Below, piece by piece: positions 6,747-36,118 of a stretch of DNA of 64,000 bases. The notes under the pieces are model-generated. The model was not told where the DNA came from, did not search any database, and saw nothing but the letters and a program-made list of their open reading frames with translations. The translations under genes and the position numbers were made by a program. The first letter of the stretch is position 1, and every line of letters begins with the position of its first letter. The DNA lies in assembly GCA_965208105.1 (NCBI GenBank), contig OZ242318.1, positions 3,616,001 through 3,680,000 on the forward strand. The letters run 5' to 3'. The stretch is from Candidatus Latescibacterota bacterium. Lineage in GTDB: Bacteria > Latescibacterota > UBA2968 > UBA8231.

Positions 6747-6841
6747 GATGGGACCGCCTTTCTTTCTCCATTCGGTTTTTCCTCCCGGGCCTCCGGCGCA
6801 TGGCCCAGCGGGCAGCTGACTTCACGGTTGCCGGGCTTGAG

Positions 6842-8607: not shown

Positions 8608-8878
8608 TGCAGTTCGGAAGGGTCCGCCGGAAGATGCCGTGGCTGAAAAGTGGTCGAGGTGCGCGAGGTTCAAGGATACCCAGGGGACCGGACCCGGTCA
8701 AGGAAAGAGAGATGCCGCTGACTGCTCGGAAAAGGCTTCGCCCGTAGACGGCTCCGAATGCATGAACACTCGCAATGGAAACCGAATGTTCATGGTAAAA
8801 GGGTCCCGTGGTCTCTCCTCCAGTCCCGGGGCCTCGGAAAGGGTGCGCAAAAGTGTAATTCTACCTATCTTTGGCAGC

Positions 8879-9187
8879 ATGGATTCCGGTCCGGGAAGCG
8901 AAAATCCCCCCTCTGCCGCGCCGCGCCAGCGCCTGCTCTATCTCCACGGACGCACGCCGAACGTGTTCTCCGACGTGATCGCCATGACCCTCATCGAGCC
9001 GGTGCGGGGATACGCGTCCGAGATCAGCGCCGGGGAGCAGGACTGGCCATACTCCACCGTTCACGACGCGGTGGTCGACGGCTGGCAGATCGTGCAGTTC
9101 CCGCATCAGCAGGCACCAATCAACGACCGCGACCTCGACGTGGTCGGCTATGAATTCATTCTGCAGAAAATGGAGGTAATACCATGA
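8879..9187 (+). CDS. Hypothetical ~102-aa protein coupled to the PhyH-family dioxygenase
   Basis: Typical codon usage from ATG 8879; ATGA overlap with the next gene. Confidence 0.7.
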   Translation: MDSGPGSENPPSAAPRQRLLYLHGRTPNVFSDVIAMTLIEPVRGYASEISAGEQDWPYSTVHDAVVDGWQIVQFPHQQAPINDRDLDVVGYEFILQKMEVIP

Positions 9188-9969: not shown

Positions 9970-10003
9970 CGCCTGCCCCCAATCCCGGGTGGATTCACCG
10001 GCA

Positions 10004-20316: not shown

Positions 20317-21186
20317 CTAGTGCCCCCCGTGGGACTCCATCCCGTGCTCGTGATGGACGGCGCTGGATTCCACGTAGTAGAGCACGTAGGCCAGGGCGAT
20401 TCCCAAAAGGAGGGATATGATGAGCTTGCCGCGGTCGTGGCCGTGGAATTGGATCTCGGGCAGCAGGTCGCTCAGGGCGATGCAGAGGAAGGCTCCGGCG
20501 GCAAAGGACAGCACGTAGCCGACTATCGCTCCATGTTCCGGACCCAGCAGCTCCACCCCCGTGAAACTAGCCAGGGCTACCAGGGGACAGAGCATGGCGA
20601 AGCCGACGTTGGCCGCGGTGCGGGACCGGGGGCTGTGTCCGGCGGACTTCATCATGCCGATGATGGAGTAGGCGTCGAGGGGCTTGTGCAGCAGTATGGC
20701 GAGGAATACCCCCAGCCCGACCAGCACCACTTCGTCGGAATGGGGCGGGCCAATCTGCATGCTGGTACCCAGGGCGATCCCTTCGGTCACGGTATGCACC
20801 CCGAGGCCGAGGACGACGCCTACCAGGCTGCGCGAATGGACGACGGAACCGCCGTGGTCGCGCCGGTCGTAGAGATCCTTGGCCTCGGCGCTGAAGTCGT
20901 GCTGGTGGTACTGAAAGATGCGCAGCAGAAAAATCATGAGGACCATGCCGAACACCATCCATCCAACCACTTTCTCTATGATTGCAGGTCCGGTAAGGCG
21001 ATCGATGCTGTGGGGCAGAAGGTGAAACATGGCGATGCCGAGGATGAAACCGGCCACGAGGCTCATGACCACCTGGGTGCGGGTGTGGGTCATGTTGCCC
21101 ATGGCCGCCAGTTTGCCGCCGCCGATGGAGACGGCGAAGATGGCGGCGCAATAGGCGAGCAAGACCAGAAAAGTATGTATGTCCAT
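20317..21186 (-). CDS. ZIP-family divalent metal transporter
   Basis: HLLPH, HQHD loop, HTVTEGIALG (TM4), HKPLD (TM5), SDLLPE; His-rich C-terminus. Confidence 0.9.
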   Translation of the reverse strand: MDIHTFLVLLAYCAAIFAVSIGGGKLAAMGNMTHTRTQVVMSLVAGFILGIAMFHLLPHSIDRLTGPAIIEKVVGWMVFGMVLMIFLLRIFQYHQHDFSAEAKDLYDRRDHGGSVVHSRSLVGVVLGLGVHTVTEGIALGTSMQIGPPHSDEVVLVGLGVFLAILLHKPLDAYSIIGMMKSAGHSPRSRTAANVGFAMLCPLVALASFTGVELLGPEHGAIVGYVLSFAAGAFLCIALSDLLPEIQFHGHDRGKLIISLLLGIALAYVLYYVESSAVHHEHGMESHGGH

Positions 21187-21292
21187 GATGGCCGTGATCA
21201 AAAACTACGTGGGATAGCGGTCGTCCCCCGGATGGGAGGGAAGGAAGAGCGCGCCAGGAGCGAAGAAGCTGGTCTCGGCAAGGGATTTCCGC

Positions 21293-21781
21293 TCAGAAGA
21301 ACAGCATCAACAGCACGATGCTGCTCAGCCCGCCGAGCATGAACCCCGCGGTGCTGACGACGCCCGAGGCCATGGAGAAGTCGGCGATGCGGAAGGTCTG
21401 GGGCCCGATGGTGAACATCACCTGGGAGCGGTCGATCTCCCCCTCGACGAATCCCTTCAGGCCCTCCTCGGCGCTGTGAGCCTCCTTGACAGAGACCAGG
21501 GCTACGAGAATCATGGTCATGGCCGAGGCCAGGGTCCCGATCGCGAACATGAGCAGCGTAGCCAGGGCGAACCAGTGGTAGGCGGCGTCCTCGTTCCCCG
21601 ACGAGGAGCTCATGAACCCGATGATCAACGCCGCACCGCCCGCATTGCCGAGCAGCAGCAACCGGGCGGACTCGGTGATCAGCCTGAACATGGTGCCGCG
21701 GCGCATGGCGACGACTTTGTAGAGCTCTCGCAGCCACTCTTCACCGGTTTCTTCGCCGGAAAATTCATCCACCTTTTTCAA
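21293..21781 (-). CDS. Hypothetical membrane protein (3 predicted TM helices)
   Basis: Three hydrophobic stretches; 3 bp downstream of the SBP gene stop. Confidence 0.7.
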   Translation of the reverse strand: MKKVDEFSGEETGEEWLRELYKVVAMRRGTMFRLITESARLLLLGNAGGAALIIGFMSSSSGNEDAAYHWFALATLLMFAIGTLASAMTMILVALVSVKEAHSAEEGLKGFVEGEIDRSQVMFTIGPQTFRIADFSMASGVVSTAGFMLGGLSSIVLLMLFF

Positions 21782-21784
21782 TGG

Positions 21785-22900
21785 CTAATTTCCTCCGAGA
21801 TCGGTCAGCCTGATGTAGCTCGAACCCGTATTGGTGCCGGGCTCGAATTCGAGAGTCCAATCGTCGATCGCCACCGGCCCGGACGCCAGGGCCTGATCCA
21901 TGAAATTCTGGCGCGTCAGCTGGTCGCCCATGCGCTCCAGCACGGCTATGACGAAGCGGCCCAGAATGTAACCTTCGAGGGACACCTCGTTGATGGTGTA
22001 ATCCGCCGTCTCCGTCCCCGCCGCCGCGGACTCGAGAGCTCGTTGGAAACTCCGCACAACCGGCCTGCTGGTGTCGTCGGCGTCGGGCATCACCTCGGTG
22101 ACCAGGATCCGGTCGTTGGGCTCTGTGACCTCCTTCTTGAGCTCGTAGGACAGGACGAAGGACAGGTTGGCGATTATGTACTGGTGGCCAAGGGAATGCG
22201 CCAGGTTGATGATCTCCGCGTTGGCGGCGTAGGCTCCGACGATGAGGATGGCGTCCAGGTCGGCCTTGGCCAGGGCGAAGAGGCTCGCCTGGACGGCGTG
22301 GGTGTTGCGCGAGAAGGCGGTCTTCGCCAGAATGGGGACGCCGTGTCCGTCGAGAACCGTCTTGTAGTTTCTCAGGACGGAACGGCCGAAGGCGTCGTCC
22401 TGGTAGATGATCCCGAAGCGGTTCTTGCCGCGCTCCTGCAGGATGTGCTCCACCAGCAACCGGGTCTCGTCGAAATAGCCCGCCCTCAGGTTGATGACGT
22501 TGGGGAAGCGCTTGGTGTTGCGCAGGAAATCGGCGCCGGTGAAGGGTCCGACGAAAGGAATCCCCGCCGTCCTCAGCACGGGGGCGATGCGCTTGGCGGT
22601 CGGCGTCCCCACCCCGCCGATGACGGCCAGCACCTCGTTCTCGGCGGCGAAGCGTTCGGCGTTGGCCGCGGCCTGCTCGGGCTCGTAGGCGTCGTCGAGG
22701 GATACCAGCTCCAGCGGCCTGCCGTTCACCCCGCCGCGCGCGTTGCACTCGCGGAAGGCCGCCTCGATCCCCGCCCGGTAGTTGAACCCCAGGCGCTCGT
22801 TCGGCCCGGAGAAACAGGCACTCTGGCCGAACACCACGGCCTCCGCGGCGGCCGTGGAGACCGCGGCCGAGAGCACGAGGAGGAAGGAGGCCAGCAGCAT
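21785..22900 (-). CDS. Periplasmic substrate-binding protein, LivJ/type-1 PBP family (orphan)
   Basis: Signal peptide MLLASFLLVLSAAVSTAAA; FGQSA, GGVNGR, LDDAYEP, GVGTPT, YQDDAFG; ATG 1 nt after the hflK-like stop. Confidence 0.85.
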   Translation of the reverse strand: MLLASFLLVLSAAVSTAAAEAVVFGQSACFSGPNERLGFNYRAGIEAAFRECNARGGVNGRPLELVSLDDAYEPEQAAANAERFAAENEVLAVIGGVGTPTAKRIAPVLRTAGIPFVGPFTGADFLRNTKRFPNVINLRAGYFDETRLLVEHILQERGKNRFGIIYQDDAFGRSVLRNYKTVLDGHGVPILAKTAFSRNTHAVQASLFALAKADLDAILIVGAYAANAEIINLAHSLGHQYIIANLSFVLSYELKKEVTEPNDRILVTEVMPDADDTSRPVVRSFQRALESAAAGTETADYTINEVSLEGYILGRFVIAVLERMGDQLTRQNFMDQALASGPVAIDDWTLEFEPGTNTGSSYIRLTDLGGN

Positions 22901-22901
22901 G

Positions 22902-24245
22902 CTAATTACCCTTGCCACCGGCTTTCGCTTTCTTTTCGGCGCCAACTGTTTTCTCCTTCTTCGCGCCGCCGCCTTCCTTCTTTTTCTTCTCCCCGGTTGC
23001 CAGGTTCTCGATCATCGGCTTTTCGTCGGCCTCCTGGCCCACGGGCTTGCCGCTCACGTGGCGGTGGGAGAAGATGGACGGGGTGTCGAAGATGAGCGAC
23101 CGCGGGTTGGCGATGCTCATGTGGTCCCGTTCGGCGCGGGTCTGATGGAACTGGCCGTCGAGCAGGAGCTTGTCGGCATGGATGCTTTCGATGGCGTGCA
23201 CGTTCTGCATGGTGGCCGTCGAGAGCAGGGGCCTGTCTTCGATTTTTTCACTGGTGGGAGGTGCTTCCAGCGCCATGTGCGCCGGGGTGAACCCGCCCGC
23301 TCCGTCGATCATGTTGATGTCGATGGCCGACTGGTTGCCCGGATTGACCGCCGCCAGGCTGGCCTCCGCAAAGATCTTGCGCATCCGGTCCCAGTAGCGC
23401 GTGATTCCCACGTGGGCGGGCTGTTTGCGGTATTCGGCCAAAAGCGCCGAGAAGGCTCCGGCGGTGCTCTTCGCCTGTACCACGCGCTCCCTGGCCTTGG
23501 CCTTGGCGTTGATCACCATGGCCTTGGCCTGTCCACGGCTGTGGGCGATGAGCTGCTCCCTTTTGCGGTTGGCGTCGCTCACCGCCTTGACGCGGTCGGC
23601 GAAGGCGTCGCTCACGTCCCGGAAGGCGGCGATGGTTTCCTCGATGGGGCGCACGTCGAGGATGTCGAGGGAGACCAGCTCAATCCCGATGTCGCGGGAG
23701 GCGAGGCGCTCGGTGATCCGCTCGAACAGTTTGCTTTGAATGATGTTTCGATTCGAGGTGAGGATCAGGTCGATGAAGTTCTGCCCCAGGATATTGACCA
23801 GCTCCTCCCTGGAGATCATGGTCACCATGGCGAGGGGGTCGGAGGTGACGAACAGGTAGTTCCTCAGGTTGTCGACCTTGTACTGGAGGGCCACGTCCAC
23901 TTCGAGCAGGTTCACGTCTCCCGAAAGGATGGTGAAGTTGACGGAATCGCCCTCCTTGCTGGAAACCTGGTGGCGGATGATGCGCTTGACCTTGTGGACG
24001 TAGGTCTTCTCGATGACGGGAATGCAGTAGTGGATGCCGGGCCCGATGTTGGCGTCCACCACCCGGCCGAAGCGGGTGCGAACGCCCTGCTCCTCTTTCT
24101 TGACGACGTAGAACCCGCTGGCCAAAAACCCGGCGACGACGGCTGCGGTGACCGATTGCAGGATGCGCCGGTGGTGCTTGCCGAGGAAGTCGAATGCGGC
24201 GTAGATGACCCGCGTGCTGGGCGGCAATGACTGTCGTTCGCTCAT
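22902..24245 (-). CDS. HflK-like SPFH protein with long C-terminal extension
   Basis: TM helix then SGFYVV..GVRTRFG..PGIHY, LSGDVNLLEVDVALQYKV, AAFRDV, coiled coil, F-ALLAEY. Confidence 0.85.
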   Translation of the reverse strand: MSERQSLPPSTRVIYAAFDFLGKHHRRILQSVTAAVVAGFLASGFYVVKKEEQGVRTRFGRVVDANIGPGIHYCIPVIEKTYVHKVKRIIRHQVSSKEGDSVNFTILSGDVNLLEVDVALQYKVDNLRNYLFVTSDPLAMVTMISREELVNILGQNFIDLILTSNRNIIQSKLFERITERLASRDIGIELVSLDILDVRPIEETIAAFRDVSDAFADRVKAVSDANRKREQLIAHSRGQAKAMVINAKAKARERVVQAKSTAGAFSALLAEYRKQPAHVGITRYWDRMRKIFAEASLAAVNPGNQSAIDINMIDGAGGFTPAHMALEAPPTSEKIEDRPLLSTATMQNVHAIESIHADKLLLDGQFHQTRAERDHMSIANPRSLIFDTPSIFSHRHVSGKPVGQEADEKPMIENLATGEKKKKEGGGAKKEKTVGAEKKAKAGGKGN

Positions 24246-24266
24246 TTCAGGCGGACTCCCCAATTG

Positions 24267-25154
24267 TCAGGGCCTTGCCTTGGTGTCGAGATACTTGAAA
24301 AGCTCGTTGTCGGCCGGCAGCATGAGGGTGGTGTTGCGATCGATTATGAGGTCGTAGCTGTCGAGGGCGCGGACGAACTTGTAGAACTCCGGATCCTTGC
24401 GGTAGGCCTTGCCCAGCAGGGCCATGGCCTCGGCCTCGGCCTCGCCCAGAATGGCGGTGGCCTCGGCGTGGGCGTCGGCGATCAGCTTCTCGTGCTCGTT
24501 GATGGCCAGGGCCTCGATGCGCAGGGCCATCTCCTCGCCCTCGCTGCGATAGCGGGCGGCGATGCGCGCGCGCTCGGCGATCATGCGGCGGATGACGCTG
24601 GGCCGGTTCTCCACCGGCAGGGTGTACTCGACGATCCCCGCCTCCATTACCTCGATCCCGTAGCTCTCCCTGGCGACGGGGGCGATTCTGGCGAGAATCG
24701 CCCGGGAGGCCTCGTTGAGGTCCTCGTGCTCCAGCCCCAGTCCGATGAAGGCGTCGAGGGACTTGTTGCTGATGATGATTCCGCTGCTGGAAAGGTAGAG
24801 GTCCTGCAGCCGCTCCACCGCGCTCTGGCCGGTGCGGATCGCCTCGACGAAGAGAATGGGGTCCACGGTGCGCCAGAGCAGGTAGCCGTCGACGAGGATG
24901 CTCTTCTGGTCTTCGGTGATCAGCTCGTGGGGGATTCCGGTCAGGGTGTGAATGCGGCGGTCGACCTTGTAGATCTTCGAAATGGGGCGCGGCCACTTCA
25001 GGTGAAACCCGGGCTGCCGCACGGGGGGAGAAATCTTGCCGAAGTGAGTCAACACCCCCTGCTGGGTCTCGTTGACGATGTAAAAACTGTCGTAGGCGAT
25101 GGCGGCGGCGATGGCGATGATGGCCGCGGTGATCGTCTTTCTCTTCAGCTTCAT
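24267..25154 (-). CDS. HflC-like SPFH protein
   Basis: SFYIVNETQQGVLTHFG, PGFHLKWP, ITEDQK, RMIAER, RSEG, DPEFYKFVRALDSY. Confidence 0.9.
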   Translation of the reverse strand: MKLKRKTITAAIIAIAAAIAYDSFYIVNETQQGVLTHFGKISPPVRQPGFHLKWPRPISKIYKVDRRIHTLTGIPHELITEDQKSILVDGYLLWRTVDPILFVEAIRTGQSAVERLQDLYLSSSGIIISNKSLDAFIGLGLEHEDLNEASRAILARIAPVARESYGIEVMEAGIVEYTLPVENRPSVIRRMIAERARIAARYRSEGEEMALRIEALAINEHEKLIADAHAEATAILGEAEAEAMALLGKAYRKDPEFYKFVRALDSYDLIIDRNTTLMLPADNELFKYLDTKARP

Positions 25155-27445
25155 TGCCCTTTACTCCCGTGGTGTCGGTCCCCGCCGGCCGCCCGGGCAT
25201 TGCTCTTCTTCCACAGGGCGACCTTCTCGAGGCTCTTCTTGTTGGGCACGATGATCTTGGGGTTGCCGGCCAGGGCGGTCTCCAGCTTCTCCCGCCACAG
25301 CATGTTGCGCAGGACCCCGGGGGCGCTGCGCACGGCGTCGGACACGAGGGAGATGGCCTCGGCCTCGGCCGCCGAGGTCTTCACCTTCCGGTAGGCCTCG
25401 CCCTCCGCCTGCTCCACCTCCCACTCGGCGTTGCCGTGCGCCTGGGGGATCAGGGCTACCAGGAAGCGCTGGGCGTTGACGATGATCCGCTCGCGGTCCT
25501 CCTGGGCGCTCGATACGTCCCGGAAGGCGCTGACCGTCTCGGCCACCGGCTTGATTTCCAGCAGGTTCACCTTGACCAGGTCCACGGTCCTGAGCACCGG
25601 GTTCTCCAGGTGGATGTCGGAGGCGAAGGACTCGGTGATGTGCTCTTCCAGGGTTACGCGATGGACGTTGAGCAGTTGTTCCAGATCCCGGGCGGACACG
25701 AAGGAACGCAGGTGGGCCTTGACCACGTCCGTTATGATCTTCTCCGGGCTGGTGGTGCGGTAATGATACTCGTAGGGGTCCTCGACCCGGTACTGCACGT
25801 TGACGGTGAGGGTGAGGAGGTTGAGGTCTCCGGACACGTAGTCGTGGGGGGCGTCGCTCATTATGGACTTCACCTCCCGCACCGGCCACTTGTCCACCTG
25901 GACGAAGGGCCGGGGGGCGAGGTAGTGCAGGCCGGGCTGCAGGTCGCGCCAGTGGACCTTGCCGAAGAGCAGGCCATAGCCCACCGATCCGGGAGGCACG
26001 GTGGTGAAGCCGCTACCCAGAAACAGGACCAGGGCCAGGGCCCAGAGGATCAGCCCCAAGGGCGCGGCGGGAGAGACGACGCCCCAGGCCGAACGGCTGC
26101 GGGTCAGACGGCGCCAGGTCCGGCGCCAGGGCCGGGACAGAGGCCGGAGATTGAGCAACAGGTCCTCCCAGCCGCTGCGCATGGCCCCGGCGCGGAAGCG
26201 CCAGACGATAAGGGCGATGAGGACAAAGGCGCCTCCCCATTGCATGAACTGCAGGGTGGGCGAGTCCGAGGCGACGAGATTCACCGAGATGCTCAGGCCG
26301 GCGGCGAGGAGCAGAATGTCGATCAGGATGCCGAGGGCGGCGGTGACCGCGATGACCGCGGTGACGTAGATGGAAGCGAAGCGGGCGCCGAACTGGCTGA
26401 CGATGATGGCGATGGTTCCCGTGTTGGTGGCCGGACCGGTCATGAGAAAGATCAGCGCCGCGCCCGGGCTGACCCCCTTGGCCACCAGGGCGGCGGCGAT
26501 GGGGGTGCTGGCGGATGCGCAGATGTAGAGCGGAATGCCGATGAGCACCATGACGGGATAGGCCAGCCAGCGGGCGTACTCGTGGGCCATCAGGTCGCCG
26601 GGGATGACCAGGAAGAGCACTCCTCCCAGGGCCACTCCCACCAGCAGGGCGAAGAGGATGTCGTCGGCAATCTCGACGAAACCGTAGCGGAAGATGTGCT
26701 TGACGACCCGCCTGAAGTCCAGCTCCGGGTGGTCGGCCGGGGCGGCGGAGGAATCGTCCGCTGCGCCCTGCGCGGCAAGGGACTCGCGGTAGAAGTCCGG
26801 CTTCACCCAGGATGTGGTCTTCCAGCGGCCGGCCGCCAATGCGACTGCCTTCAACCAGTGAACGGTGAGCCTCTTCAGCATCGAGGGGCTGACGTAGCAG
26901 TCGTCACTGTCGGCGATGAGAGCCTCATGGCCGTGGTCGTGATTGTGGTCGTGATCATGGTCGTGTTCGTCATGCTCATGGCCGTGATCGTCATGGCCGG
27001 CCTCTGATTCGTCCCCTTTTCTGATGAGGCCGATGCAGAAGATGCCGGCGACGACCGCGGTGATGAAGCTGATCACGGGCCGCACGATGGCGACGACCCA
27101 TCCGAAGAAGGCGTTGGTGACCAGGATGGAGTCGGCCCCTGTTTCAGGGGCGGTTATGAGAAAGGACATGCAGGAGGAACGGGAGGCGCCCTTGCGGCGC
27201 ATCTCGGCAACCACCGGAACCACGGAGCAGCTGCACAGGGGCACCGGTACGCCGATGGCCGAGCTCATGCTGACCGACTTCAGGCTGTCTTCGCGGAGCC
27301 AGCGCAGAATGGCCTGGCGGGATATGAATACATGGATCAGGCCGGAGAGGAACAGCCCCAGAAGCAGCATGGGGGCCAGCAGCAGGAAGGACGACCAGAG
27401 GAAATCGAAGAACCTGGTGAATATGTCAAGGAAGCTCAGGGCCAA
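25151..27445 (-). CDS. ArsP/DUF318 (SO_0444-type) metal permease fused to a C-terminal HflK-like SPFH domain
   Basis: PLCSCSVVP, FLITAPETG, YICASASTP, FLMTGPATN permease motifs with His-rich loop; C-terminal ~300 aa SGFTTVPPG..PGLHY..SGDLNLL..VQYRV..SAFRDV; TTG start with GGAGG RBS. Confidence 0.88.
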   Translation of the reverse strand: MALSFLDIFTRFFDFLWSSFLLLAPMLLLGLFLSGLIHVFISRQAILRWLREDSLKSVSMSSAIGVPVPLCSCSVVPVVAEMRRKGASRSSCMSFLITAPETGADSILVTNAFFGWVVAIVRPVISFITAVVAGIFCIGLIRKGDESEAGHDDHGHEHDEHDHDHDHNHDHGHEALIADSDDCYVSPSMLKRLTVHWLKAVALAAGRWKTTSWVKPDFYRESLAAQGAADDSSAAPADHPELDFRRVVKHIFRYGFVEIADDILFALLVGVALGGVLFLVIPGDLMAHEYARWLAYPVMVLIGIPLYICASASTPIAAALVAKGVSPGAALIFLMTGPATNTGTIAIIVSQFGARFASIYVTAVIAVTAALGILIDILLLAAGLSISVNLVASDSPTLQFMQWGGAFVLIALIVWRFRAGAMRSGWEDLLLNLRPLSRPWRRTWRRLTRSRSAWGVVSPAAPLGLILWALALVLFLGSGFTTVPPGSVGYGLLFGKVHWRDLQPGLHYLAPRPFVQVDKWPVREVKSIMSDAPHDYVSGDLNLLTLTVNVQYRVEDPYEYHYRTTSPEKIITDVVKAHLRSFVSARDLEQLLNVHRVTLEEHITESFASDIHLENPVLRTVDLVKVNLLEIKPVAETVSAFRDVSSAQEDRERIIVNAQRFLVALIPQAHGNAEWEVEQAEGEAYRKVKTSAAEAEAISLVSDAVRSAPGVLRNMLWREKLETALAGNPKIIVPNKKSLEKVALWKKSNARAAGGDRHHGSKGQ

Positions 27446-27611
27446 TCAGCGACCTCCAGTTAAAAAAGCCAATCGAAGCTGCAACTGACTGTTGGGCAAC
27501 CAAATGAATTCCAATGTTACAGAAGTATTAGAGACCAGTTAATATAGTTAACTATTGTTGTTTATACCGTCTTTTTTTCGTGAAGAAATTACAAGTCGAT
27601 GGCGCCGGAGC
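27446..27611 (-). promoter_or_regulatory. AT-rich promoter/operator region of the permease-SPFH operon
   Basis: Conspicuously AT-rich; perfect palindrome ATAGTTAACTAT at 27544-27555. Confidence 0.55.
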
Positions 27612-30600
27612 CTATGGCGCCGCGTCCCGGTCCACCTCCACCGCAAACCACTTGTAGAGCGCCGGCAGCACCAGCAAGGTCAGCACGGTGGAGCTGACCA
27701 GGCCGCCGACCACCACCGTCGCCAGAGGCCGTTGCACCTCGCTGCCGGTGCCGGTGGAGAACAGCAGGGGGATCAGCCCCAGGGCGGTAGTCAGGGCGGT
27801 CATGAGCACCGGCCTCACCCGCAGGCACGCCCCCCGGACCGAGACTTCGTCCAAGTCCACCCCCTCGCGGACGAGCTGGTTGAAGTAGGTCACCATCACC
27901 ATGCTGTTCCCCAGGGCGATGCCGAACAGGGCGATGAAACCCACTGAGGACGGCACCGAGAGGTTCTGCCCGGTCAGCCACAGGGCAACCACACCGCCCA
28001 CCAGCGCCAGGGGAATGTTGAGCAGGATCAGCACCGCGTTCTTGAGCGAATTGAAGCTGGAGAACAGCAGCAGGAAGAGGGCGAACAGGGTGATGGGAAC
28101 GACGATGGCGAGGCGCCTGTTGGCCTCCTGCTGCAGGCGGAACTGGCCGCCCCAGGTCACCAGGTAGCCCGGCGGCAGCGCCACCTGTCCGGCGATGGCC
28201 TCCCGGGCCTCGCGGACGAAGGATCCCATGTCGCGGCCGCTGACGTTGCACTGGACGGTGATGAAGCGCTGGCTCTTCTCGCGGGTGATCTGGCGGGGGC
28301 CCACCACCTCCTCGATGCGGGCTAGTTGAGCCAGGGGGATCTGGAGGCCCATGGGGGACTGGACCAGGATCTGGGCGATGGCCTCGGGGCTGCTGCGGAA
28401 CCGGGGGGCGAAGCGCACCAGGATATCGAAGCGCCGGGTCCCTTCGAACACCTGACCCACCAGCTCGCCGCCGACCGCCGCCTGCACCACCTCCTGGACG
28501 TCGGCCACGTTGATGCCGTAGCGGGCGATGGCCTGGCGGTCGACCCCGATGAGCAGCTGGGGGGTGCCGCTGATCTGGTCCACCTGGACGTCGGCCGCTC
28601 CGGCTACCCCGCCGACCACCTGGGCGATTTCGTCGGCCTTGAGCTTGAGCACGTCGAGGTCGTCCCCGAAGAGCTTGACGGCCAGCTCGGCCCGCACTCC
28701 TTCCAAAAGCTCGTCCACGGTCATGGCGATGGGCTGGGTGAAGTTGGTCAGCACCCCGGGTATGTCCCCGAGCTCGGCGCGGACGAACTCGCGCAGCTCT
28801 TCCTGGCTGCCGGCGTTGCGCCACCGGTCCCTGGGCTCGAGCAGGAGAAACATCTCGGCGCTGTTGATGGGGTCGGTGTGGGCGCCCACTTCGCCGCGGC
28901 CGATGCGCGATACCGCGCCGGAAATTTCGGGGATCCGCAGCAGTCGCCGTTCCACCAGCATGGTGATCCGGGTGCTCTCCTCCAGGGATATGGAAGGGGC
29001 CATGGTCAGGCGCAGGACCATGGTGCCCTCCTGCAGGGCGGGCGTGAACTCCGACCCCAGGCGCGGGAAGATCACCATCCCGATAAGAAGGAGGATCCCC
29101 GCCGATCCCAGGGCCCAGAAGCGGTGGGCCACGAAGCGGGCGACCAGGGGCCGGTATGCGGCCACCAGCCGCCGCGTCATCCAGCTTTCCCCGGGGGGTG
29201 TGCCGTCATTGCCTGGCTTTGGCGGGCGCAGCACCAGGTTCGACAGTACCGGGGCCAGAAAGAGGGCGAAAACCAGGGAGCCCAGCATGGCCATGGCCAC
29301 GGTGTAGGCCAGGGGGCGGAAGGTCTTGCCCTCGACTCCCTGGAGAGTGAACAGGGGCAGGAACACGAGAATGATGATGAGGATGGCGAATACGATTGGA
29401 CGTCCCACCTCCACGCAGGCGCGGGCAACGGCCCTGCCGCGCTCCTCCTCCGCCTGCGGCTGGCGCAGCGCGCGGTCCACGTTCTCCACCACGACGATGG
29501 TGCCGTCCACCATCATGCCGATGGCGATGGCCAGGCCGCCGAGGGACATGAGGTTGGCCGAGAGGCCGAAGTAGTTCATCCCCAGGGTGGCGAACAACAC
29601 GGAAAAGGGAATGGACAGGGCGACCACAAGGCTGGGGCGGACGCTGCCCATGAAGAGGATGAGCACCAGGGTGACCAGGACGATGCCCTGCACCAGGGCA
29701 TCGGTGACGGTCTTGACGCAGGCGGCCACCAGGGTCTTCTGCTCGTAGTATGGCACCAGCCGCACCCCCTCGGGCAGGATGCTGTTGATCTCCTCCATCC
29801 TGGCCTCGACCCGCTCGATGACGGTGGAGGAGTTGGTGCCGAAGAGCTTTATCACCATGCCCGCCACCACCTCCTCCACTCCGTTGCGGGTCTGCACCCC
29901 GCGGCGGATGGCTCCGCCGATGCCCACCCGGGCAACCTGGTCGAGGAAGACGGGGGTCCCGTCGACGGCCTTGATCACGATGTTCTCGATGTCCTCCACG
30001 GTGGAGGCCAGGCCCACGGAGCGCACCACGTATTCCTCGGCGTCCTTCTCGATGAACTGGGCGCCGACGTTGAGATTGTTGGCCTCGATCTGGGCGATGA
30101 CGTCGCGCAGGGTCACCCCGTAGCGCAGCAGGGCATGGGGGTCCACCACCACCTGGAACTGCTTCTCGTGGCCGCCGATGCCGAGGATTTCAGTGACTCC
30201 GGGAACGGTCTGCAGATGGAACTTGACCAGCCAGTCCTGGATGGTGCGCAGCTCTTCGAGGGAGTAGTTGCCGGAGCTGTCCTCCAGGTAGTAGAAGAGG
30301 ACCAGGCCCATGCCCGTGGAAATAGGTCCCAGCGCCGGCTCGCCGAAGCCTTCGGGTATCTGTTCCCAGGCCTCGTGGAGGCGTTCGCTCACCAGTTGGC
30401 GGGCGAAGTAGATGTCCACCTCGTCGGCGAAGTAGATGTTGACCACCGAGAGGCCGAAGTTGGAGACGGAGCGGATGTTCTCGATGCCCGGCAGGCCGTT
30501 CATCACCGTCTCGATGGGGTAGGTGACGTAGGTTTCGATCTCTTCGGGAGCCAGACCTTCGGTGACGGTGAATACCTGGACCAGGTTGGGCGAGACGTCG

Positions 30601-30719
30601 GGGAAGGCGTCCACCGGAAGCTGGCGGTAGCTGAAATAGCCGCTGGCCACCACCACCGCTCCCAGGACCAGCATGAGCATGCGGTTGCGCAGGGCCAGGT
30701 GAACGACGCGCTCGATCAT
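27612..30719 (-). CDS. czcA: Heavy-metal efflux RND transporter (CzcA/CusA family)
   Basis: 1035 aa; LPVDAFPD, AIGMMVDGTIVVVEN, GVEGKTFRPLA, RVRPVLMTA, GSEVQRPLA. Confidence 0.93.
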   Translation of the reverse strand: MIERVVHLALRNRMLMLVLGAVVVASGYFSYRQLPVDAFPDVSPNLVQVFTVTEGLAPEEIETYVTYPIETVMNGLPGIENIRSVSNFGLSVVNIYFADEVDIYFARQLVSERLHEAWEQIPEGFGEPALGPISTGMGLVLFYYLEDSSGNYSLEELRTIQDWLVKFHLQTVPGVTEILGIGGHEKQFQVVVDPHALLRYGVTLRDVIAQIEANNLNVGAQFIEKDAEEYVVRSVGLASTVEDIENIVIKAVDGTPVFLDQVARVGIGGAIRRGVQTRNGVEEVVAGMVIKLFGTNSSTVIERVEARMEEINSILPEGVRLVPYYEQKTLVAACVKTVTDALVQGIVLVTLVLILFMGSVRPSLVVALSIPFSVLFATLGMNYFGLSANLMSLGGLAIAIGMMVDGTIVVVENVDRALRQPQAEEERGRAVARACVEVGRPIVFAILIIILVFLPLFTLQGVEGKTFRPLAYTVAMAMLGSLVFALFLAPVLSNLVLRPPKPGNDGTPPGESWMTRRLVAAYRPLVARFVAHRFWALGSAGILLLIGMVIFPRLGSEFTPALQEGTMVLRLTMAPSISLEESTRITMLVERRLLRIPEISGAVSRIGRGEVGAHTDPINSAEMFLLLEPRDRWRNAGSQEELREFVRAELGDIPGVLTNFTQPIAMTVDELLEGVRAELAVKLFGDDLDVLKLKADEIAQVVGGVAGAADVQVDQISGTPQLLIGVDRQAIARYGINVADVQEVVQAAVGGELVGQVFEGTRRFDILVRFAPRFRSSPEAIAQILVQSPMGLQIPLAQLARIEEVVGPRQITREKSQRFITVQCNVSGRDMGSFVREAREAIAGQVALPPGYLVTWGGQFRLQQEANRRLAIVVPITLFALFLLLFSSFNSLKNAVLILLNIPLALVGGVVALWLTGQNLSVPSSVGFIALFGIALGNSMVMVTYFNQLVREGVDLDEVSVRGACLRVRPVLMTALTTALGLIPLLFSTGTGSEVQRPLATVVVGGLVSSTVLTLLVLPALYKWFAVEVDRDAAP

Positions 30720-30740
30720 GGGTCTGTTCCCCTCCGCACC

Positions 30741-31970
30741 TCAGTGCGAGTGGCCGTCTCCGAAAGCCCCTTTGGCCAACTGGGATTTGAGGATGAAGGC
30801 GCCGCGGGCGACGTAGGACTGCCCCGGCTCCAGACCGGCGACAATCTCGGAGTGGGTGGAGTTGCTGCGGCCGACGCGGACGGGGTGGGGAACGAATCCT
30901 TCGCCGGTTTCGACGAAGACCACGGCATGATCATCGATGGTCTGAACGGCCGATCCCGGCACCAGGACGGGCACCTGGACCGCATCCCCCGAGATGGTCG
31001 CGGTGACGAAGGAACCTGGACGCCAGCGGCCCTCCGGGTTGCGCAGCTCGATGCGCACCGGGGCGGTGCGGGTGGCCTCGTCCACGATGGGGCTGATGTA
31101 GTCCACCGAAGCCGTGGTCGACGGGCCACCCTGCCCGGCCTCGATGTGCACGGTCTGGCCGACGCGCAGGAAGGGCAGGTCCTTCTGGTAGGCGGTCAAC
31201 ATCACCCACACCGAGCGCAGGTCGGCCACCACGAAGGCCTCTGAGTCTTCCTGCAGGACCTCGCCCCGGACGATGTGCTTGCTGATGACGGTGCCTGAAA
31301 GGGGAGCCGTCATCGGGTAGCGGGTGAAGCGCTCGCCGTCTTCGAAGGACAGCCCGGCCAGGTAGTCGCCGGAAAATCCCAGGGACTGCAGCTTCTGCTC
31401 GGCCGCCTGCAGCTCGATGAGAGCCTCGGCCAGTCCGTTCCTGGCCTCCTGGAACTGCCGCTCCGAGGAGATGGACTGGTCCCAAAGCGATTTCTCCCGC
31501 TCGAAGGTGGCTCGCGCAAGCTCCAGCCGCTCCCGGGAAACAAGGTAGGCCGATTTCAGCTCCGACAGCTCGGGGCTGTCGAGCACCGCCAGGACCTGGC
31601 CTCGCTGCACCGGGTCGCCGATATTGGCGTGGATATCCCGGGCAACCCCCCCAATCCGGGGAACGATGTGGGCCACCAGATCGGGATTGACCTGCACCTC
31701 GCCGGGGGTATGAATCTGAACCGCCAGGCGGCCGGCGGCGGCCTCTGCGACCTCGATGCCGAACTCGGTCCGTTCCGCGGCGCTCAGGCGAATTCCCTCC
31801 TCGGGGTCCTTCCCTCCTTCTCCGGCGTGACCTTCCTCCTCGTGGTGGCCCCCCTCCTCCGCCCAGGCCGGACCTTCCAGGAAAGAAACGGCAGCACGCT
31901 CTCCCGGGGCCGAAAGAGCCGTCTGCAATGCGATGAATCCCAGGACCGCGATGTGGACTCGCATTCTCAT
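30741..31970 (-). CDS. czcB: RND periplasmic adaptor (CzcB-like)
   Basis: GDPVQRGQVLAVLDSPEL, VADLRSVWV, TRTAPVR, WRPGSF; His-containing N-terminal segment and HSH end. Confidence 0.9.
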   Translation of the reverse strand: MRMRVHIAVLGFIALQTALSAPGERAAVSFLEGPAWAEEGGHHEEEGHAGEGGKDPEEGIRLSAAERTEFGIEVAEAAAGRLAVQIHTPGEVQVNPDLVAHIVPRIGGVARDIHANIGDPVQRGQVLAVLDSPELSELKSAYLVSRERLELARATFEREKSLWDQSISSERQFQEARNGLAEALIELQAAEQKLQSLGFSGDYLAGLSFEDGERFTRYPMTAPLSGTVISKHIVRGEVLQEDSEAFVVADLRSVWVMLTAYQKDLPFLRVGQTVHIEAGQGGPSTTASVDYISPIVDEATRTAPVRIELRNPEGRWRPGSFVTATISGDAVQVPVLVPGSAVQTIDDHAVVFVETGEGFVPHPVRVGRSNSTHSEIVAGLEPGQSYVARGAFILKSQLAKGAFGDGHSH

Positions 31971-33250
31971 TCTCCTTGGGGATGGGTGGGCGGGGGAGCG
32001 CCGACGGCGCGCTCCAGGGCGGCGTCGGCGGCGCCGTAGTCGAACAGGGCGTGGGCGTATTCCACTCGGGTCACTAACCGGAGGCGGCGGGCTTCGAGCA
32101 GCTCCAGGTAGGTGGACTTGCCCTCGTCGTAGCTGCGGCTGGCTACCTCGAACGCCCGTTCCGCCCCGGGCAGAATCCGGTCCTCGAACAGGGCCACCTG
32201 CTCGGCGGCGGTTTCGAGGTCGAGGAAAGCTCCTTTCGTCTCCAGAAGGATCCGATTGCGCAACTCGTCGCGCTCGGCCCTTGCCCGGACGGCTTCCGCT
32301 TGGGCAAGGGCCCGTTCGCCGCGCTGGTGCAGGAATGCCCACAGAGGCACCTCCAGGCCAATGCGAAAAAGCCAGGAGTCCTCCCCGTGGCCTCCATGCC
32401 GTTGTTGGAGAGCCAGACCCGCGTTCAGGTCCGGCCAATAGGCCGCGGTGGCCGCCGCCTGCCGGCTCCGCAGGGCTTTCAACTGCAGCTCGGCCCCGGC
32501 CAGGTCGGGCCGCTGTCTCAGGGCTGCCTCGTTCAGTTGGTCGAGATCGGCCTCGACCGGCTGAAAGGCCAGGCTGTCGGCCAGTGAGAAGGGGGTCTGC
32601 AGGGGCCGTGCCAGGAGGGCATTGAGTTCGGCCCTGGCCACCGAAAGCTCGTTTTGCGCCGCTCTCTTGCGGTTACTTGCCCGTCCAACCTCGACGCTTG
32701 CCCGCAGCACGTCAAGCTCCGGCACGTCGCCCGCTTCGAAACGGATGTGGGCCTGGCGCAGAATATTCTGGGCCAGGTGGAGGTCTTGACGGGCATGCTG
32801 GAGCAGGTCCTCGTTCAGCGCGATGCGGTCATAGGCCGTCCTGGCCCGGAGGACGAGGTCGAGCCGGGCCATCTCGAAGACCGCCAGGCGGGCCGCTTCG
32901 GCGTGCTGGCGGCCGGCCTGGAGACGGTACCACCACTTCAGGGGAAATTCGAACCGCTGGCTGACGCCGATTGTGTGCTCGCCATGGTGTCCCGAGCTGC
33001 CGAATCTGGGCAGCTCTTCGAACTCGAACTCCGGGTCGGGCGGGACGGCGGCCTGACGCCCCAGGGCGCGGGCGCCTTCCCAGGCGTTGCGGGCGGCCTC
33101 CACCTCTGGATTGCGCTCCAATGCCAGGCGAACGGCGTCGTTCCTCGACAGGGGCTCGGCGTGCGCTTCTTCACCAGAAGGCTGGCCGTGGGCGAGGGCG
33201 GGCGCGAGCAGGAAGAGGAGGAGGATGGAAGGTGGTTTGGCTGACAACAT
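31967..33250 (-). CDS. czcC: TolC-family outer membrane efflux protein (CzcC-like)
   Basis: Signal peptide; ALERNP, RFEAGD, LRQRPDL, YDEGKSTYLELL. Confidence 0.88.
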   Translation of the reverse strand: MLSAKPPSILLLFLLAPALAHGQPSGEEAHAEPLSRNDAVRLALERNPEVEAARNAWEGARALGRQAAVPPDPEFEFEELPRFGSSGHHGEHTIGVSQRFEFPLKWWYRLQAGRQHAEAARLAVFEMARLDLVLRARTAYDRIALNEDLLQHARQDLHLAQNILRQAHIRFEAGDVPELDVLRASVEVGRASNRKRAAQNELSVARAELNALLARPLQTPFSLADSLAFQPVEADLDQLNEAALRQRPDLAGAELQLKALRSRQAAATAAYWPDLNAGLALQQRHGGHGEDSWLFRIGLEVPLWAFLHQRGERALAQAEAVRARAERDELRNRILLETKGAFLDLETAAEQVALFEDRILPGAERAFEVASRSYDEGKSTYLELLEARRLRLVTRVEYAHALFDYGAADAALERAVGAPPPTHPQGE

Positions 33251-33356
33251 GGCTAATGCCTGGGGAGTGCAGGATACCGCGGGCCATGGGGAGGCTGAAA
33301 AAAGCGTTTCTCGAGGCGTGGCTGAGCATTTCTGCCAGCAATTGAAAAAAAGTAAC

Positions 33357-33370
33357 CATTGCGCGCAATG
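33357..33370. promoter_or_regulatory. Perfect 14-bp palindrome upstream of czcC (candidate operator)
   Basis: CATTGCGCGCAATG next to an A-tract, ~107 bp upstream of the czcC ATG. Confidence 0.4.
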
Positions 33371-33446
33371 CGCAAGCCCCGGACGAAGGGTGTCCGGTGG
33401 TCTCCGGGGCGGGCAAAACTCTGCGGCGGAGCCAAAAGGCGGGTGA

Positions 33447-35963
33447 TCAGCGCTCCAGCTCTTCCGGTTGGGGGTCGGGTCCGGCAGCGTTCGCCCGGGT
33501 GTTCCTGTGCTCCCTGACAACCAGAGCCAGGGCCATGACAAGCGAGACCGCGGACAGGGCCAGAAGGCCACGGCGCAGCGGAGAAAGCCTCGCCTCGATG
33601 GCGATTTCATGCACTCCCGCCTCCAGCGGCAGGGCCATGAAGCGGCCGGCGGTCTGCAGCGGCCGCACCGGCTTTCCGTCGACGCTGACCCGCAGGTAGG
33701 GGAAGTAGGCGTAGGCCAGCCGCGCGTAGCAGTCCGCCGAGACCTCCACCTTCATCTCTACTTCCTGGCGCCGGACCACGTGGGAGACGACCCGCGCCTC
33801 GGGGGTGGTCCCCAGGTCGCGCTGTCCCTCCAAGTCCCGCACCAGGATGCGCTCGCAGGCGAGAGACCCCAGCGGCCGCTGCACGCCGGTGCGGGCGATG
33901 ATCTCCAGGGCCCGGGCCATGGCTTCGTCCATCTCGGGATCGGCACCGATGCGGGCGGATATCGCTCCCGGGCCGGTGTCACTATCGTCGTAGCCTTCCA
34001 GGCGCCCGGAGACCACGATTGGGCTATGGCCCAGTGAAAGTACAGATGCGAACCTGTTTTGCCCGGAGCTCACGATCAGGTAGCGCGTGTTGAGGAGGTA
34101 CAGACCTTCGCGCAAAAATTCGTATTGTGGGTGGGAGGTCAGTTGCTCGGGCGATTCCATTCTCTCCAACAGCCCGTGGGCCCAGTCGGTGAAGGGTTGG
34201 GTGAAGCTTTGGAGGGTGCGCAGCTCCCCCGGGTGTAATGCTTCGGCAATCGGCGTCGCGCCATCGTAGAGCATACACGACTGCCTCCTGAATATGTTAA
34301 GGCCGGTGGCGATCCATTGGGCCTGGTAGCTGGGCAGCTCGCCGCGCTGAGAAAAGGGCGCTGAGGCCGCTGCCACCGGATCGAAAATGTCCCTGGGTGA
34401 ACCGCAGGGCGAGTAGTCCGCTTTACAGTAGGGCTGCACGAAGGTGGTGGGGAAGAGGTCGATCATCAGAACCAGGAGGAGTATGGTGTACCAACGGCTG
34501 CGCGCCAGGGTCCGGGGACCATGGGACAGGAGATGGTAGGCGCCCGCGCCCGCTGCCAGGGCGAGGAAGAAGGAGAGGAAGAGCAGGTAGCGCGAGGCGT
34601 TGAAGGCATGGACCAGGGGCAATGCGGCGAGAGGAGGCCAGCGGTAGGCGATGATGACCAGCGCCACCAGGACGAGACAGACCCAGCACGACGCGGGCCT
34701 CCCATCTCGCCGTCGCAACGCCACCGCGCCTCCGCCCAGGGTAAGCAGCACCAGCGAGATCCCCAGGTAGCCGCCGTACCAGTGATAAGGCTGGGGAGGA
34801 AGCAGCCAGAAGCGGAGGTTGGACCAGCCCAGCAGGTGCCGCCAGGTGGGGTCGGGGACCCCCGACTGGTCGACGTTGAACTCGTGCAGCTTGGTAAGAG
34901 CGCGCTCGAAAAACATCCCGGCGTTCAGGTAGGACGAAAAAACGGCGCCGAGGAGGAAGAAAAGAAAACCGGCGCCCACAATGGCCCTGGTGTCCGGGCG
35001 CTGCCGGCAGGACCACAGGCGCACCAGGCTGTAGCATGCCAGCAGCGCCATGGCGTAGGTGCCGTAGCCGGGGTGGGTGAAGTTGAGCAGGGCCACGCAG
35101 ACTGCGCCAAGGAGGGCGGCCTGCATCCTGCGGGGCGAGGCGGCGACGCGCTCCACGTAGTGGAAGGCCCAGGGCAGCACGGCATAGAAAAGGGACAGGG
35201 ACAGGCGGCCCATGATGAGAACCTGCTGGGTGTGCCAGAAGCACAGGGCGTAGCCCAGCCCGGCGACGAATCCGGCGCGGCGCGAACCGCAGATGCCGGT
35301 AACCAGAAAGTACATTCCGAGCCCGGAGATCAGGTGGCCGGCGGCCATGGTCAGCTTCAGCGACAGGGAGAGATCGCGGAATACCAAATCGGCCAGCCCC
35401 ACCAGGTAGAAGAAGGCGAAGCCGTAGTTCTGCAGGTAGGGAGAGCCCGTACCCATGAAGAAGGTCCAGACCGGCGCCTCTCCGGCGGCGATGGCCTCGG
35501 CGGCGAGCCAGGAGGTGACGATGTGGTGGGAGGCGTCGGCTGCCCAGCTCAGTTCGCCTCCGGAAAAGTAGAAGCGTATGCAGACCAGCAAAGAGAAGAC
35601 CAGCAGCAACACGGTCCTGGTCGGGCTGGCGAAACAGTGCTGGAGAAAGTCGCTGAGGACCCGCCGGCGCCACTCGTTGTAGAGCAGGAGCGTGGTGGAG
35701 ATGAGGAAGAGGGCGAAGAGGACGGCGTCGAGGGCGTCGAAGGAAATTTTCTGGGCGGCGTGGCCTATGAAATTTACCAGTGTACCGTAGGTTTTCGCGG
35801 GAGGGAAGATCGCGAACTTTTCCACCGTCACGTACTGCATGCAGACGCAGGTCCCGGCCCAGAAAAGCAGCATCCACAAGGTGGGAAAGGGACGCCTAGA
35901 GCTTGCAGGCGGCACTTCCCGGCCGCTCTCTCCGCGGGTTGGGGGTTGGGAGGCTGGATTCAA
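33447..35963 (-). CDS. Multipass membrane protein, YfhO/PTPS-related GT-C-like
   Basis: Many TM helices; PVWTFFMGTGSP, RYLLF; YfhO-like C-terminus YFPYLRVSVDG..LEAGVHEI. Confidence 0.7.
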   Translation of the reverse strand: MNPASQPPTRGESGREVPPASSRRPFPTLWMLLFWAGTCVCMQYVTVEKFAIFPPAKTYGTLVNFIGHAAQKISFDALDAVLFALFLISTTLLLYNEWRRRVLSDFLQHCFASPTRTVLLLVFSLLVCIRFYFSGGELSWAADASHHIVTSWLAAEAIAAGEAPVWTFFMGTGSPYLQNYGFAFFYLVGLADLVFRDLSLSLKLTMAAGHLISGLGMYFLVTGICGSRRAGFVAGLGYALCFWHTQQVLIMGRLSLSLFYAVLPWAFHYVERVAASPRRMQAALLGAVCVALLNFTHPGYGTYAMALLACYSLVRLWSCRQRPDTRAIVGAGFLFFLLGAVFSSYLNAGMFFERALTKLHEFNVDQSGVPDPTWRHLLGWSNLRFWLLPPQPYHWYGGYLGISLVLLTLGGGAVALRRRDGRPASCWVCLVLVALVIIAYRWPPLAALPLVHAFNASRYLLFLSFFLALAAGAGAYHLLSHGPRTLARSRWYTILLLVLMIDLFPTTFVQPYCKADYSPCGSPRDIFDPVAAASAPFSQRGELPSYQAQWIATGLNIFRRQSCMLYDGATPIAEALHPGELRTLQSFTQPFTDWAHGLLERMESPEQLTSHPQYEFLREGLYLLNTRYLIVSSGQNRFASVLSLGHSPIVVSGRLEGYDDSDTGPGAISARIGADPEMDEAMARALEIIARTGVQRPLGSLACERILVRDLEGQRDLGTTPEARVVSHVVRRQEVEMKVEVSADCYARLAYAYFPYLRVSVDGKPVRPLQTAGRFMALPLEAGVHEIAIEARLSPLRRGLLALSAVSLVMALALVVREHRNTRANAAGPDPQPEELER

Positions 35964-36061
35964 TCTCGCATCACCGGATGGAGGTCGATACTATGGCCAT
36001 TGAGGTTTATTTCTTCTCGCCAGAGGTCAGTTCGGGGAGTTTGCCGCTCCCCTCCCCGATT

Positions 36062-36090
36062 TTGCCTGCCTCCACCCGAACCCCTATACT
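36062..36090 (+). promoter_or_regulatory. sigma70-type promoter
   Basis: TTGCCT, 17 bp, TATACT, upstream of ATG 36119. Confidence 0.55.
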
Positions 36091-36118
36091 AAGGCAGGCC
36101 TGCTCGTGGCATCCATCC

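Follow-up and report, generated by a model that had tools for sequence, protein, structure and literature searches.

HflK and HflC build a 24-subunit cage around the FtsH protease. SPFH cages are the object of intense structural work, but the clients of the bacterial ones, apart from FtsH, are largely unknown. Tripartite transporters of the TRAP and TTT type consist of a binding protein, a small subunit with four transmembrane (TM) helices and a large permease. The subject of this work is a five-gene module in Candidatus Latescibacterota bacterium, headed by a gene in which a metal permease of the SO_0444/ArsP type is fused to an HflK-type SPFH domain. It lies in a stretch of 64,000 nucleotides (the window; positions 3,616,001 to 3,680,000 of contig OZ242318.1, assembly GCA_965208105.1), the genome itself being one 4.85-Mb contig. 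Together with related fusions found elsewhere, it would name a client for such SPFH proteins, namely metal transporters of three unrelated families.

Two bodies of earlier work are relevant. In Pseudomonas aeruginosa, PA2437, PA2438 and PA2439 (HflC-, HflC- and HflK-family) adjoin the P-type ATPase HmtA and were 14.4-, 10.6- and 9.0-fold up under zinc depletion (PMC4542158, Table 2). The accessible part of that paper also reports a weak Zur site for the cluster and describes HmtA as an importer, while excerpts of a proteomic study list the three proteins as increased as well (PMC11761036). A 2026 study, again in its accessible part, names them PaFlo5-7, assigns them to one operon and notes a patchy distribution suggesting horizontal transfer (PMC13086221). 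As for the permease, SO_0444 of Shewanella adjoins a ZntR-type regulator and owes its annotation as a copper/zinc efflux protein to mutant fitness and complementation (PMC3219624, in part); for its relative in Shewanella loihica, Shew_3410, a role under zinc stress is recorded (excerpt of bioRxiv 10.1101/072470). Zinc or copper stress is the condition under which the two are needed. The earlier note, made from the letters of the window, knew of no comparable system. Indeed, no paper on a transporter::SPFH or permease::SPFH fusion was found in the open-access literature or bioRxiv; an arrangement of HmtA with three HflK/C-type genes (PA2435-PA2439), however, had already been described (PMC4542158, Table 2).

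Six minus-strand genes were found where the earlier note had placed them. The fusion gene (25151-27445; 764 aa; ArsP_1 and Band_7 in Pfam) starts with TTG preceded by GGAGG, and its stop codon is overlapped by 4 nt (ATGA) by the ATG of the gene for C-prime, an HflC-type SPFH protein of 295 aa (24267-25154). Then follow the genes for K-double-prime, a second HflK-type SPFH protein of 453 aa (22902-24263), an orphan LivJ-like type I periplasmic binding protein of 386 aa (21785-22945) and, after a 3-nt gap, a small membrane protein of 162 aa with about three TM helices (21293-21781) which matches no known family. A ZIP-family metal transporter gene (20317-21201; Pfam Zip, E 1.6e-18) lies 91 nt further on. 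The gaps of 21 bp before K-double-prime and 1 bp before the binding protein are reproduced if later ATGs, at 24245 and 22900 respectively, are the starts. It was also correct that three SPFH domains stand in a row (Pfam Band_7) with no ftsH or hflX annotated in the 64-kb window. No MerR-family gene is present there either, the four MerR_1 matches of the genome all lying elsewhere.

The permease domain of the fusion occupies residues 1-415 (26201-27445). Residues 10-376 match ArsP_1 (Pfam, E 9e-45), and the domain passes NF033936, the model for SO_0444-type Cu/Zn efflux proteins, with 324.5 bits against a cut-off of 300 over model positions 2-349 of 351. The motifs PLCSCS and PLYICASASTP are invariant among 26 aligned homologues, and the cysteine motif, whose cysteine pair we take to be the functional motif of ArsP, is conserved within a membrane helix. 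A His-rich loop is found at about residues 147-175. Zip matches inside two homologues (P0017 and P0141) were considered as a third domain and rejected, being below the Pfam cut-off and located on the His-rich loop. The permease is followed by an Arg-rich linker (residues 416-455, with 11 K/R in 40 residues) and an anchor helix (456-474), both recognized by hydropathy and charge counts (26024-26200). The remainder, K-prime (residues 475-764 plus the stop codon, 25151-26023), comprises an SPFH domain (Band_7 at residues 482-659, E 2.6e-15) and a coiled-coil region. Its assignment to the HflK type follows from trees and from TIGR01933 (139.0 bits over model positions 8-252 of 261, below the cut-off of 159.4). 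The best PDB match of K-prime is the HflK of 7vhp (E 4.2e-21), and QmcA (8z5g, E 6.5e-9) is the sole solved match that is not HflK. By the positive-inside rule, the linker is predicted to be cytoplasmic and the fused SPFH domain periplasmic, as in HflK. Among 8,000 candidates scored, 1,407 relatives of the fusion were obtained at E ≤ 0.001; the best 120 of these (clusters) are 62-92% identical to it, and 116 of the 120 have both Pfam domains.

Comparison of the SPFH trio with the housekeeping HflK/HflC pair revealed two distinct sets. Band_7 is present in all three proteins, each time behind one predicted anchor helix, which for C-prime (residues 8-26) and K-double-prime (residues 36-54) is preceded by a short basic N-terminus (hydropathy and charge counts). 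All three bodies are predicted to face the periplasm, like those of HflK and HflC. C-prime passes TIGR01932 (hflC; 154 bits, cut-off 134.4), and K-double-prime reaches 144.5 bits with TIGR01933, below its cut-off. A separate hflK/hflC pair is located at G000 C1:434001-435727 and scores 278.6 and 202.5 bits, above both cut-offs, compared with 139-154 bits for the module genes. A separate HflC, at 30-34% identity, is also present in three other module-bearing genomes. Two full ftsH genes (C1:350547 and C1:1388502) lie far from the window. In the careful tree, the K/C split has support of 100/100; C-prime falls on the HflC side (split support 100) and K-prime and K-double-prime are sisters (94/89) on the HflK side. 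Each module SPFH clade has support of at least 100/99 and a long stem, apart from the FtsH-associated pair. Since a better-scoring pair exists elsewhere and the module proteins form clades of their own, the trio is not the housekeeping pair of this genome. Judged by these trees and scores, its members are paralogues of the housekeeping hflKC and are not orthologous with the FtsH-associated pair. The earlier note had named grouping with FtsH-associated orthologues, combined with the lack of a second hflKC, as grounds for giving up its proposal; neither was observed.

K-double-prime carries an additional conserved C-terminal extension, at about residues 310-430, with the motifs G-x-F-H...E-R-D-H and R-S-L-I-F-D-x-P-S-I-F-x-H, and ends in a variable Lys-rich tail. 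This extension could be a docking site for the binding protein. Together with the tail (about residues 310-453, window 22902-23330) it was seen in 15 aligned orthologues, all from modules bearing the binding protein; the extension, with its conserved His-containing motifs, is missing from two trios without a binding protein (L168 and L170, see below). The binding protein belongs to Peripla_BP_6 (E 4.4e-49), with a predicted signal peptide, and its nearest solved chain is 4kv7 (E 1.2e-44). There is no Cys/His cluster among its invariant residues, and no ABC transporter genes stand beside its gene. The small membrane protein has an acidic N-terminal helix with invariant E10, E11, E14 and E15 and a mean column identity of 74% over 13 orthologues. 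It matched no Pfam or NCBIfam family, and the ESM Atlas gave unnamed clusters only.

Conservation of the gene order was analyzed in a scan of one genome per species, which gave 57 loci, 36 of them with the complete fusion. The order fusion, C-prime, K-double-prime, binding protein, small TM protein is retained in every one of the 31 whose contig is long enough; the other five fusion loci are interrupted by contig ends. As the five-gene order recurs in 31/31 related loci, the arrangement is not due to chance, and the first five genes are one unit; conservation in other genomes, on which the earlier note had staked its proposal, thus extends to these five. The binding protein and the small TM protein are missing from all 18 permease-only loci. 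The ZIP gene, which the earlier note had counted as a member of the system, is indeed present in the window but follows the module in only 9 of the 31 complete loci. Likewise, czcCBA does lie directly upstream of the fusion gene in the window, as claimed, but this placement is not conserved, a czcA relative being present in the flanks of 7/36 fusion loci. From these counts, both are optional neighbours.

Zinc-uptake genes are the commonest other neighbours of the fusion loci. Among the 36 loci, znuB was found at 15, znuC at 12, znuA at 11 and a Fur-family gene at 7; 16 loci have at least one of znuA, znuB, znuC or a Fur-family (zur) gene, in several different arrangements, and 25 have at least one of znuABC, Fur-family, ZIP and czcA. 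In L042, the fusion gene is preceded at 87 and 67 nt by perfect Zur-box consensus sites. Among 53 related loci scanned, three such sites within 350 nt directly upstream of the fusion gene were found in two (L042 and L037), and the same run gave no site in the window. Most Zur-box matches precede znuA, including loci where znuA is just upstream of the module. About 320 nt separate znuA from the fusion gene in L024, L026-L030, L064 and L066, and this gap holds a conserved promoter-like element (TTGACA, 17 nt, TAACTT) and, after it, some 100 nt of conserved leader. Rfam gave no match in the L028 leader. TonB-dependent receptor genes lie beside unfused permease paralogues in 6 of the 18 permease-only loci. 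In L049-L054 (Latescibacterota, about 4200-10000), the unfused permease directly follows such a receptor gene, and the stretch also holds a ZIP gene and two small genes without family; L050, L051, L052 and L054 have a second permease copy on the opposite strand about 4.5 kb upstream.

The fusion of an HflK-type domain to a metal transporter is not restricted to ArsP-type permeases. When 1.84 billion cluster representatives were searched with only the SPFH part of the fusion, there were 3,621 matches at E ≤ 0.001 and 31 at E ≤ 1e-30. Among the best 150 of the 3,621, the N-terminal domain is ArsP-type in 40, CDF in 18 and P-type ATPase in 6; 86 have no transporter domain, and 85 of those are shorter than 450 aa. 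Pfam confirmed the fusion class in 10/10 sampled representatives. With NCBIfam, three ATPase fusions reach 535-611 bits on the P1B heavy-metal model (cut-off 346) and 187-201 bits on hflK, in both cases enough to pass. The scores of two CDF fusions, 83.4 and 102.3 bits on the CDF superfamily model (cut-off 82.35) and 224.5 and 242.2 bits on hflK, are likewise above the cut-offs. CDF::HflK fusions are common: 119 of the best 120 clusters have both domains, at 41-69% identity, and come from Planctomycetes, Lentisphaeria, Kiritimatiellaeota, Actinobacteria, Omnitrophota, Synergistaceae, Chloroflexi and others. These proteins (P0165 and the 119 further clusters) are about 510-520 aa long and bear in the database only the name "FtsH protease activity modulator HflK". 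As their HflK part scores above the curated HflK threshold, such organisms may have the fusion as their ordinary HflK. A search of 251 genomes from the phylum to which G471 belongs gave no P0165 at E 1e-60. A quick tree put every fused SPFH domain on the HflK side (support 100) and gave each fusion class a clade of its own (CDF 99, ATPase 98, ArsP 99 with 8 of 9 rows). The tree does not order the classes and is compatible with a single fusion event or with several.

Three adjacent HflK/C-type genes together with a heavy-metal transporter were found in the window and at two further places. L168 (5012-10053), in genome G471, which also hosts the module locus L043, encodes a P1B-ATPase::K fusion of 1013 aa, then C, then K. 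L170 (4942-11770), in G472 about 10 kb from the module locus L035, has a second, more compact ArsP::K, C, K set with znuA directly next on the same strand; a little further downstream, still on that strand, L035, which overlaps L170, shows a znuB match. Both trios are without binding protein, small TM protein and K-double-prime C-terminal extension. A related ATPase::SPFH fusion (P0207) has a His-rich N-terminus. As a control, 80 loci around ordinary P1B ATPases were taken from a metagenome scan with P0207, the patterns being conserved ATPase motifs and P0207's own contig not being returned: an SPFH gene was found in 0/80, nor was any relative of the binding protein or the small TM protein. 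The best 120 matches of the ATPase-trio C-prime are all close relatives (64-96% identity), with no Pseudomonas link. With the CDF and P1B-ATPase fusions and the zinc-gene neighbourhoods, the link to metals made in the earlier note is not only borne out but strengthened.

The 36 fusion loci span Gamma- and Alphaproteobacteria, Latescibacterota, Gemmatimonadota, Nitrospinota, Binatia, Acidobacteriota and others. Against G168, the Pseudomonadales genome that hosts L013, the genome of the window shows identities of 37.5% for housekeeping HflK and 39.4% for housekeeping HflC, compared with 86.5% for C-prime, 70.4% for K-prime and 64.5% for K-double-prime. Since the module proteins are far more alike across phyla than the housekeeping pair, the comparison indicates that the module has spread horizontally, and mis-binning is not the explanation because many loci are on chromosome-sized contigs. 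A C-prime orthologue was found in 1/301 sampled genomes from the order of G168, namely G168 itself; five large genomes of that order have no three adjacent SPFH genes, and G173 had two adjacent ones near a contig end. None of 72,556 plasmid records covers at least 80% of the fusion. Within Latescibacterota, 18 of 168 genomes (that of the window included) have one match spanning at least fusion residues 11-752, seven more match the fusion in two pieces, and many others match the permease part only.

A natural deletion was found in the same-genus locus L044. Its alignment to the window (blastn, 80-88% nucleotide identity) runs collinearly between 37378 and 14714 of the latter, with a single gap. 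The gap corresponds exactly to window 21509-26113 (4,605 bp), with a 4-nt overlap at the junction. The breakpoints lie within the fusion gene (about codon 445) and within the small-TM gene (about codon 91), the last 77 codons of which are retained as a relic. With breakpoints inside genes and a relic left behind, L044 underwent a deletion in its lineage.

As to habitat, some sequencing runs contain 26-60% of the words sampled from the stretch; their label is sponge metagenome for four studies (P2, P4, P5 and P7), marine metagenome for one and plain metagenome for one. Three RNA libraries, from two studies, yielded contigs that match portions of each of the six genes (94-99% identity) and in some cases bridge the junctions of fusion and C-prime (record 22) and of K-double-prime and binding protein (records 11 and 19). 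The locus is possibly expressed; such contigs cannot prove transcription, DNA carry-over being possible. Window 27517-28017 is almost bare of them, which is not interpretable.

Taken together, these results make us regard as marginally probable a scheme in which the five genes would serve zinc-family metals by export into a bounded periplasmic space. The inner-membrane permease would be covalently tethered to K-prime via the Arg-rich cytoplasmic linker and the anchor helix, and K-prime would assemble with C-prime and K-double-prime into an HflK/HflC-like oligomer on the periplasmic face, holding several permease copies in one bounded membrane patch. Within the scheme, the co-assembly of K, C and K is the step which we consider fairly probable. 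The secreted LivJ-type binding protein and the 3-TM protein would be further fixed parts; their roles, like the cage shape, are conjectural. The permease would most likely move metal from cytoplasm to periplasm, as its own family and the two other HflK-fused transporter families are exporters, and the SPFH assembly would then confine or gate the fate of metal or transporter on the periplasmic side. This direction is clearly less certain than the co-assembly. Zinc appears the most likely metal, possibly copper. A wider and unlikely extension would be that HflK/HflC-type cages, besides regulating FtsH, are a general housing for metal exporters: zinc or copper pumped out by tethered ArsP-type, CDF or P1B-ATPase proteins would enter a closed chamber in the periplasm, where a resident binding protein or client proteins would be loaded or the metal held. 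The chamber would be a metal-handling compartment of the envelope with protein walls, and the cassette would be exchanged among sponge-associated bacteria of many phyla.

Several observations weigh against the tethered-permease scheme. Both HflK-type parts (139.0 and 144.5 bits) remain under the curated HflK cut-off of 159.4, and the L044 deletion leaves an intact 452-aa permease open reading frame, by which the permease may not need its SPFH part. In P. aeruginosa, deletion of the triple SPFH operon had subtle effects, with about 20% less biofilm and attenuated Galleria virulence; in the accessible part of that study, zinc limitation is not among the conditions (PMC13086221). The assignment of zinc comes from neighbours and family names, not from a binding site, and no MerR/ZntR-type gene is near the module, unlike SO_0444. 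As regards direction, the fixed binding protein, znuABC/zur, Zur boxes, ZIP and the TonB-receptor genes beside unfused paralogues would fit uptake under zinc scarcity. AlphaFold models are of too low confidence to be informative (mean predicted local distance difference test 56.2 for the fusion and 49.5 for K-double-prime), and neither shows SPFH binding or a closed cage; the alignments behind them are shallow, with 26 and 15 rows of close relatives, respectively. A complex prediction that paired residues 1-480 (permease and linker) with the small TM protein scored 0.00 and is evidence neither way.

The direction is reversed in the first of three rival explanations, by which binding protein, small membrane protein and permease would form a tripartite secondary uptake system of TRAP/TTT-like design, bringing in zinc or a zinc chelate when zinc is scarce; the SPFH proteins would do no more than stabilize or cluster it. 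The binding protein and the small protein are fixed in 31/31 loci. In several loci znuA, itself preceded by Zur-box-like sites, lies immediately upstream in the same orientation, ZIP follows in nine, and TonB-dependent receptor genes precede unfused paralogues; zinc depletion moreover induces the P. aeruginosa analogue, whose HmtA is called an importer in the accessible part of PMC4542158. However, the permease passes a curated model named for an efflux protein, the HflK-fused CDF and P1B-ATPase relatives belong to exporter families, and the two accessory proteins are unrelated to the TRAP/TTT subunit families. They also track the SPFH genes and not the permease, being absent from 18/18 permease-only loci, while the L168 and L170 trios do without both. 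We regard this importer as improbable.

Descent of the trio from hflK/hflC, with the HflK of the FtsH complex as best solved match, raises another explanation: the paralogous K/C assembly might recruit one of the two FtsH of the genome and degrade or protect the permease so that its level follows metal status. HflK/HflC is also described as a modulator of FtsH in the accessible part of PMC13086221. Yet no ftsH is present in the window or in any of the related loci that were annotated, the housekeeping pair is kept alongside the module, and the module clades are long-branched and away from the FtsH-associated pair; an adaptor of this kind is doubtful. Finally, the SPFH part might be a microdomain or oligomerization tag on the permease, with neighbouring genes in separate roles and no joint cage. 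The survival of the permease alone in L044 fits this, as do the often weak phenotypes of SPFH mutants (PMC13086221, in part). On the other hand, the module genes overlap or are spaced by 1-21 nt, co-occurrence and order are strict over several phyla, L168 shows the K, C, K order again with another kind of transporter, and in L044 the whole segment was lost together. Such a loose association is, in our view, distinctly unlikely.

Upstream of the fusion gene, an AT-rich intergenic region (27446-27611, minus strand) is a possible promoter/operator. It contains a perfect 12-bp palindrome, ATAGTTAACTAT, at 27544-27555, which may be an operator or due to chance. A similar sequence, AATAGTATACTATT, stands upstream of the fusion gene of L029. 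In a consensus promoter/terminator scan, sites were no more frequent than in shuffles, and Rfam gave no match in the window at gathering scores. The RND metal efflux genes beyond it (27612-33610) are likewise on the minus strand: czcA (27612-30719; ACR_tran, 974.5 bits), czcB (30741-32438; HlyD_D23) and czcC/OEP (31967-33610; OEP, true start probably later). At their head, an 838-aa polytopic membrane protein without Pfam family (33447-35963, minus strand; 74% identity in L044) may belong with PMT_2-type glycosyltransferase genes rather than with czc, as such genes are nearby (35903-37669 and 44014-46941).

The findings have several implications. Fusions to three metal-transporter families point to an undescribed way of organising bacterial metal transport, and to a cassette common to several phyla of sponge-metagenome bacteria. 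Hundreds of database entries named only "HflK" or "Cu/Zn efflux transporter" would be marked as two-domain proteins. The fixed set of three proteins, K, C and K, can be expressed and imaged.

It remains to place the module among known systems. With TRAP/TTT it shares the joint encoding of binding protein, small membrane subunit and large permease, which is a resemblance of parts only: the three proteins (Peripla_BP_6, no family and ArsP_1) are outside the DctP/TctC, DctQ/TctB and DctM/TctA families. As in stomatin/NfeD and QmcA-YbbJ, an SPFH gene adjoins the gene of a small membrane protein, but the 162-aa protein matches no NfeD or other family. The N-terminal 415 residues of the fusion pass NF033936 and ArsP_1, as expected for SO_0444/ArsP; SO_0444, however, stands alone beside its ZntR-type regulator, whereas the permease of the window carries an SPFH domain, has uptake-gene neighbours and no MerR-family gene in the window. 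The likeness to the HflK/HflC-FtsH system of E. coli (PDB 7vhp, 7wi3, 9cz1 and 9cz2) is in adjacent K- and C-type genes, one N-terminal anchor each, a predicted periplasmic body and curated hflK/hflC models covered almost end to end. The differences are a third member (K, C, K), one K fused to a permease, separate long-branched clades, retention of the ordinary pair and no ftsH or hflX nearby. Likened by description and not by sequence, the closest described relative is PA2434-PA2439 of P. aeruginosa, the function of which is unexplained. In that cluster the transporter, a P-type ATPase, has a gene of its own, and the accessible parts of the reports mention no binding protein or small TM partner. 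Common to both is a run of three HflK/C-type genes adjoining a heavy-metal transporter. The P. aeruginosa cluster is linked to zinc status by its induction and weak Zur site; for the module, zinc control may be suggested by the znuABC/zur neighbours of 16/36 loci and by the Zur boxes of L042 and L037, the window having none. The tethered-permease scheme, if true, would supply a testable function for this zinc-starvation-induced SPFH operon.

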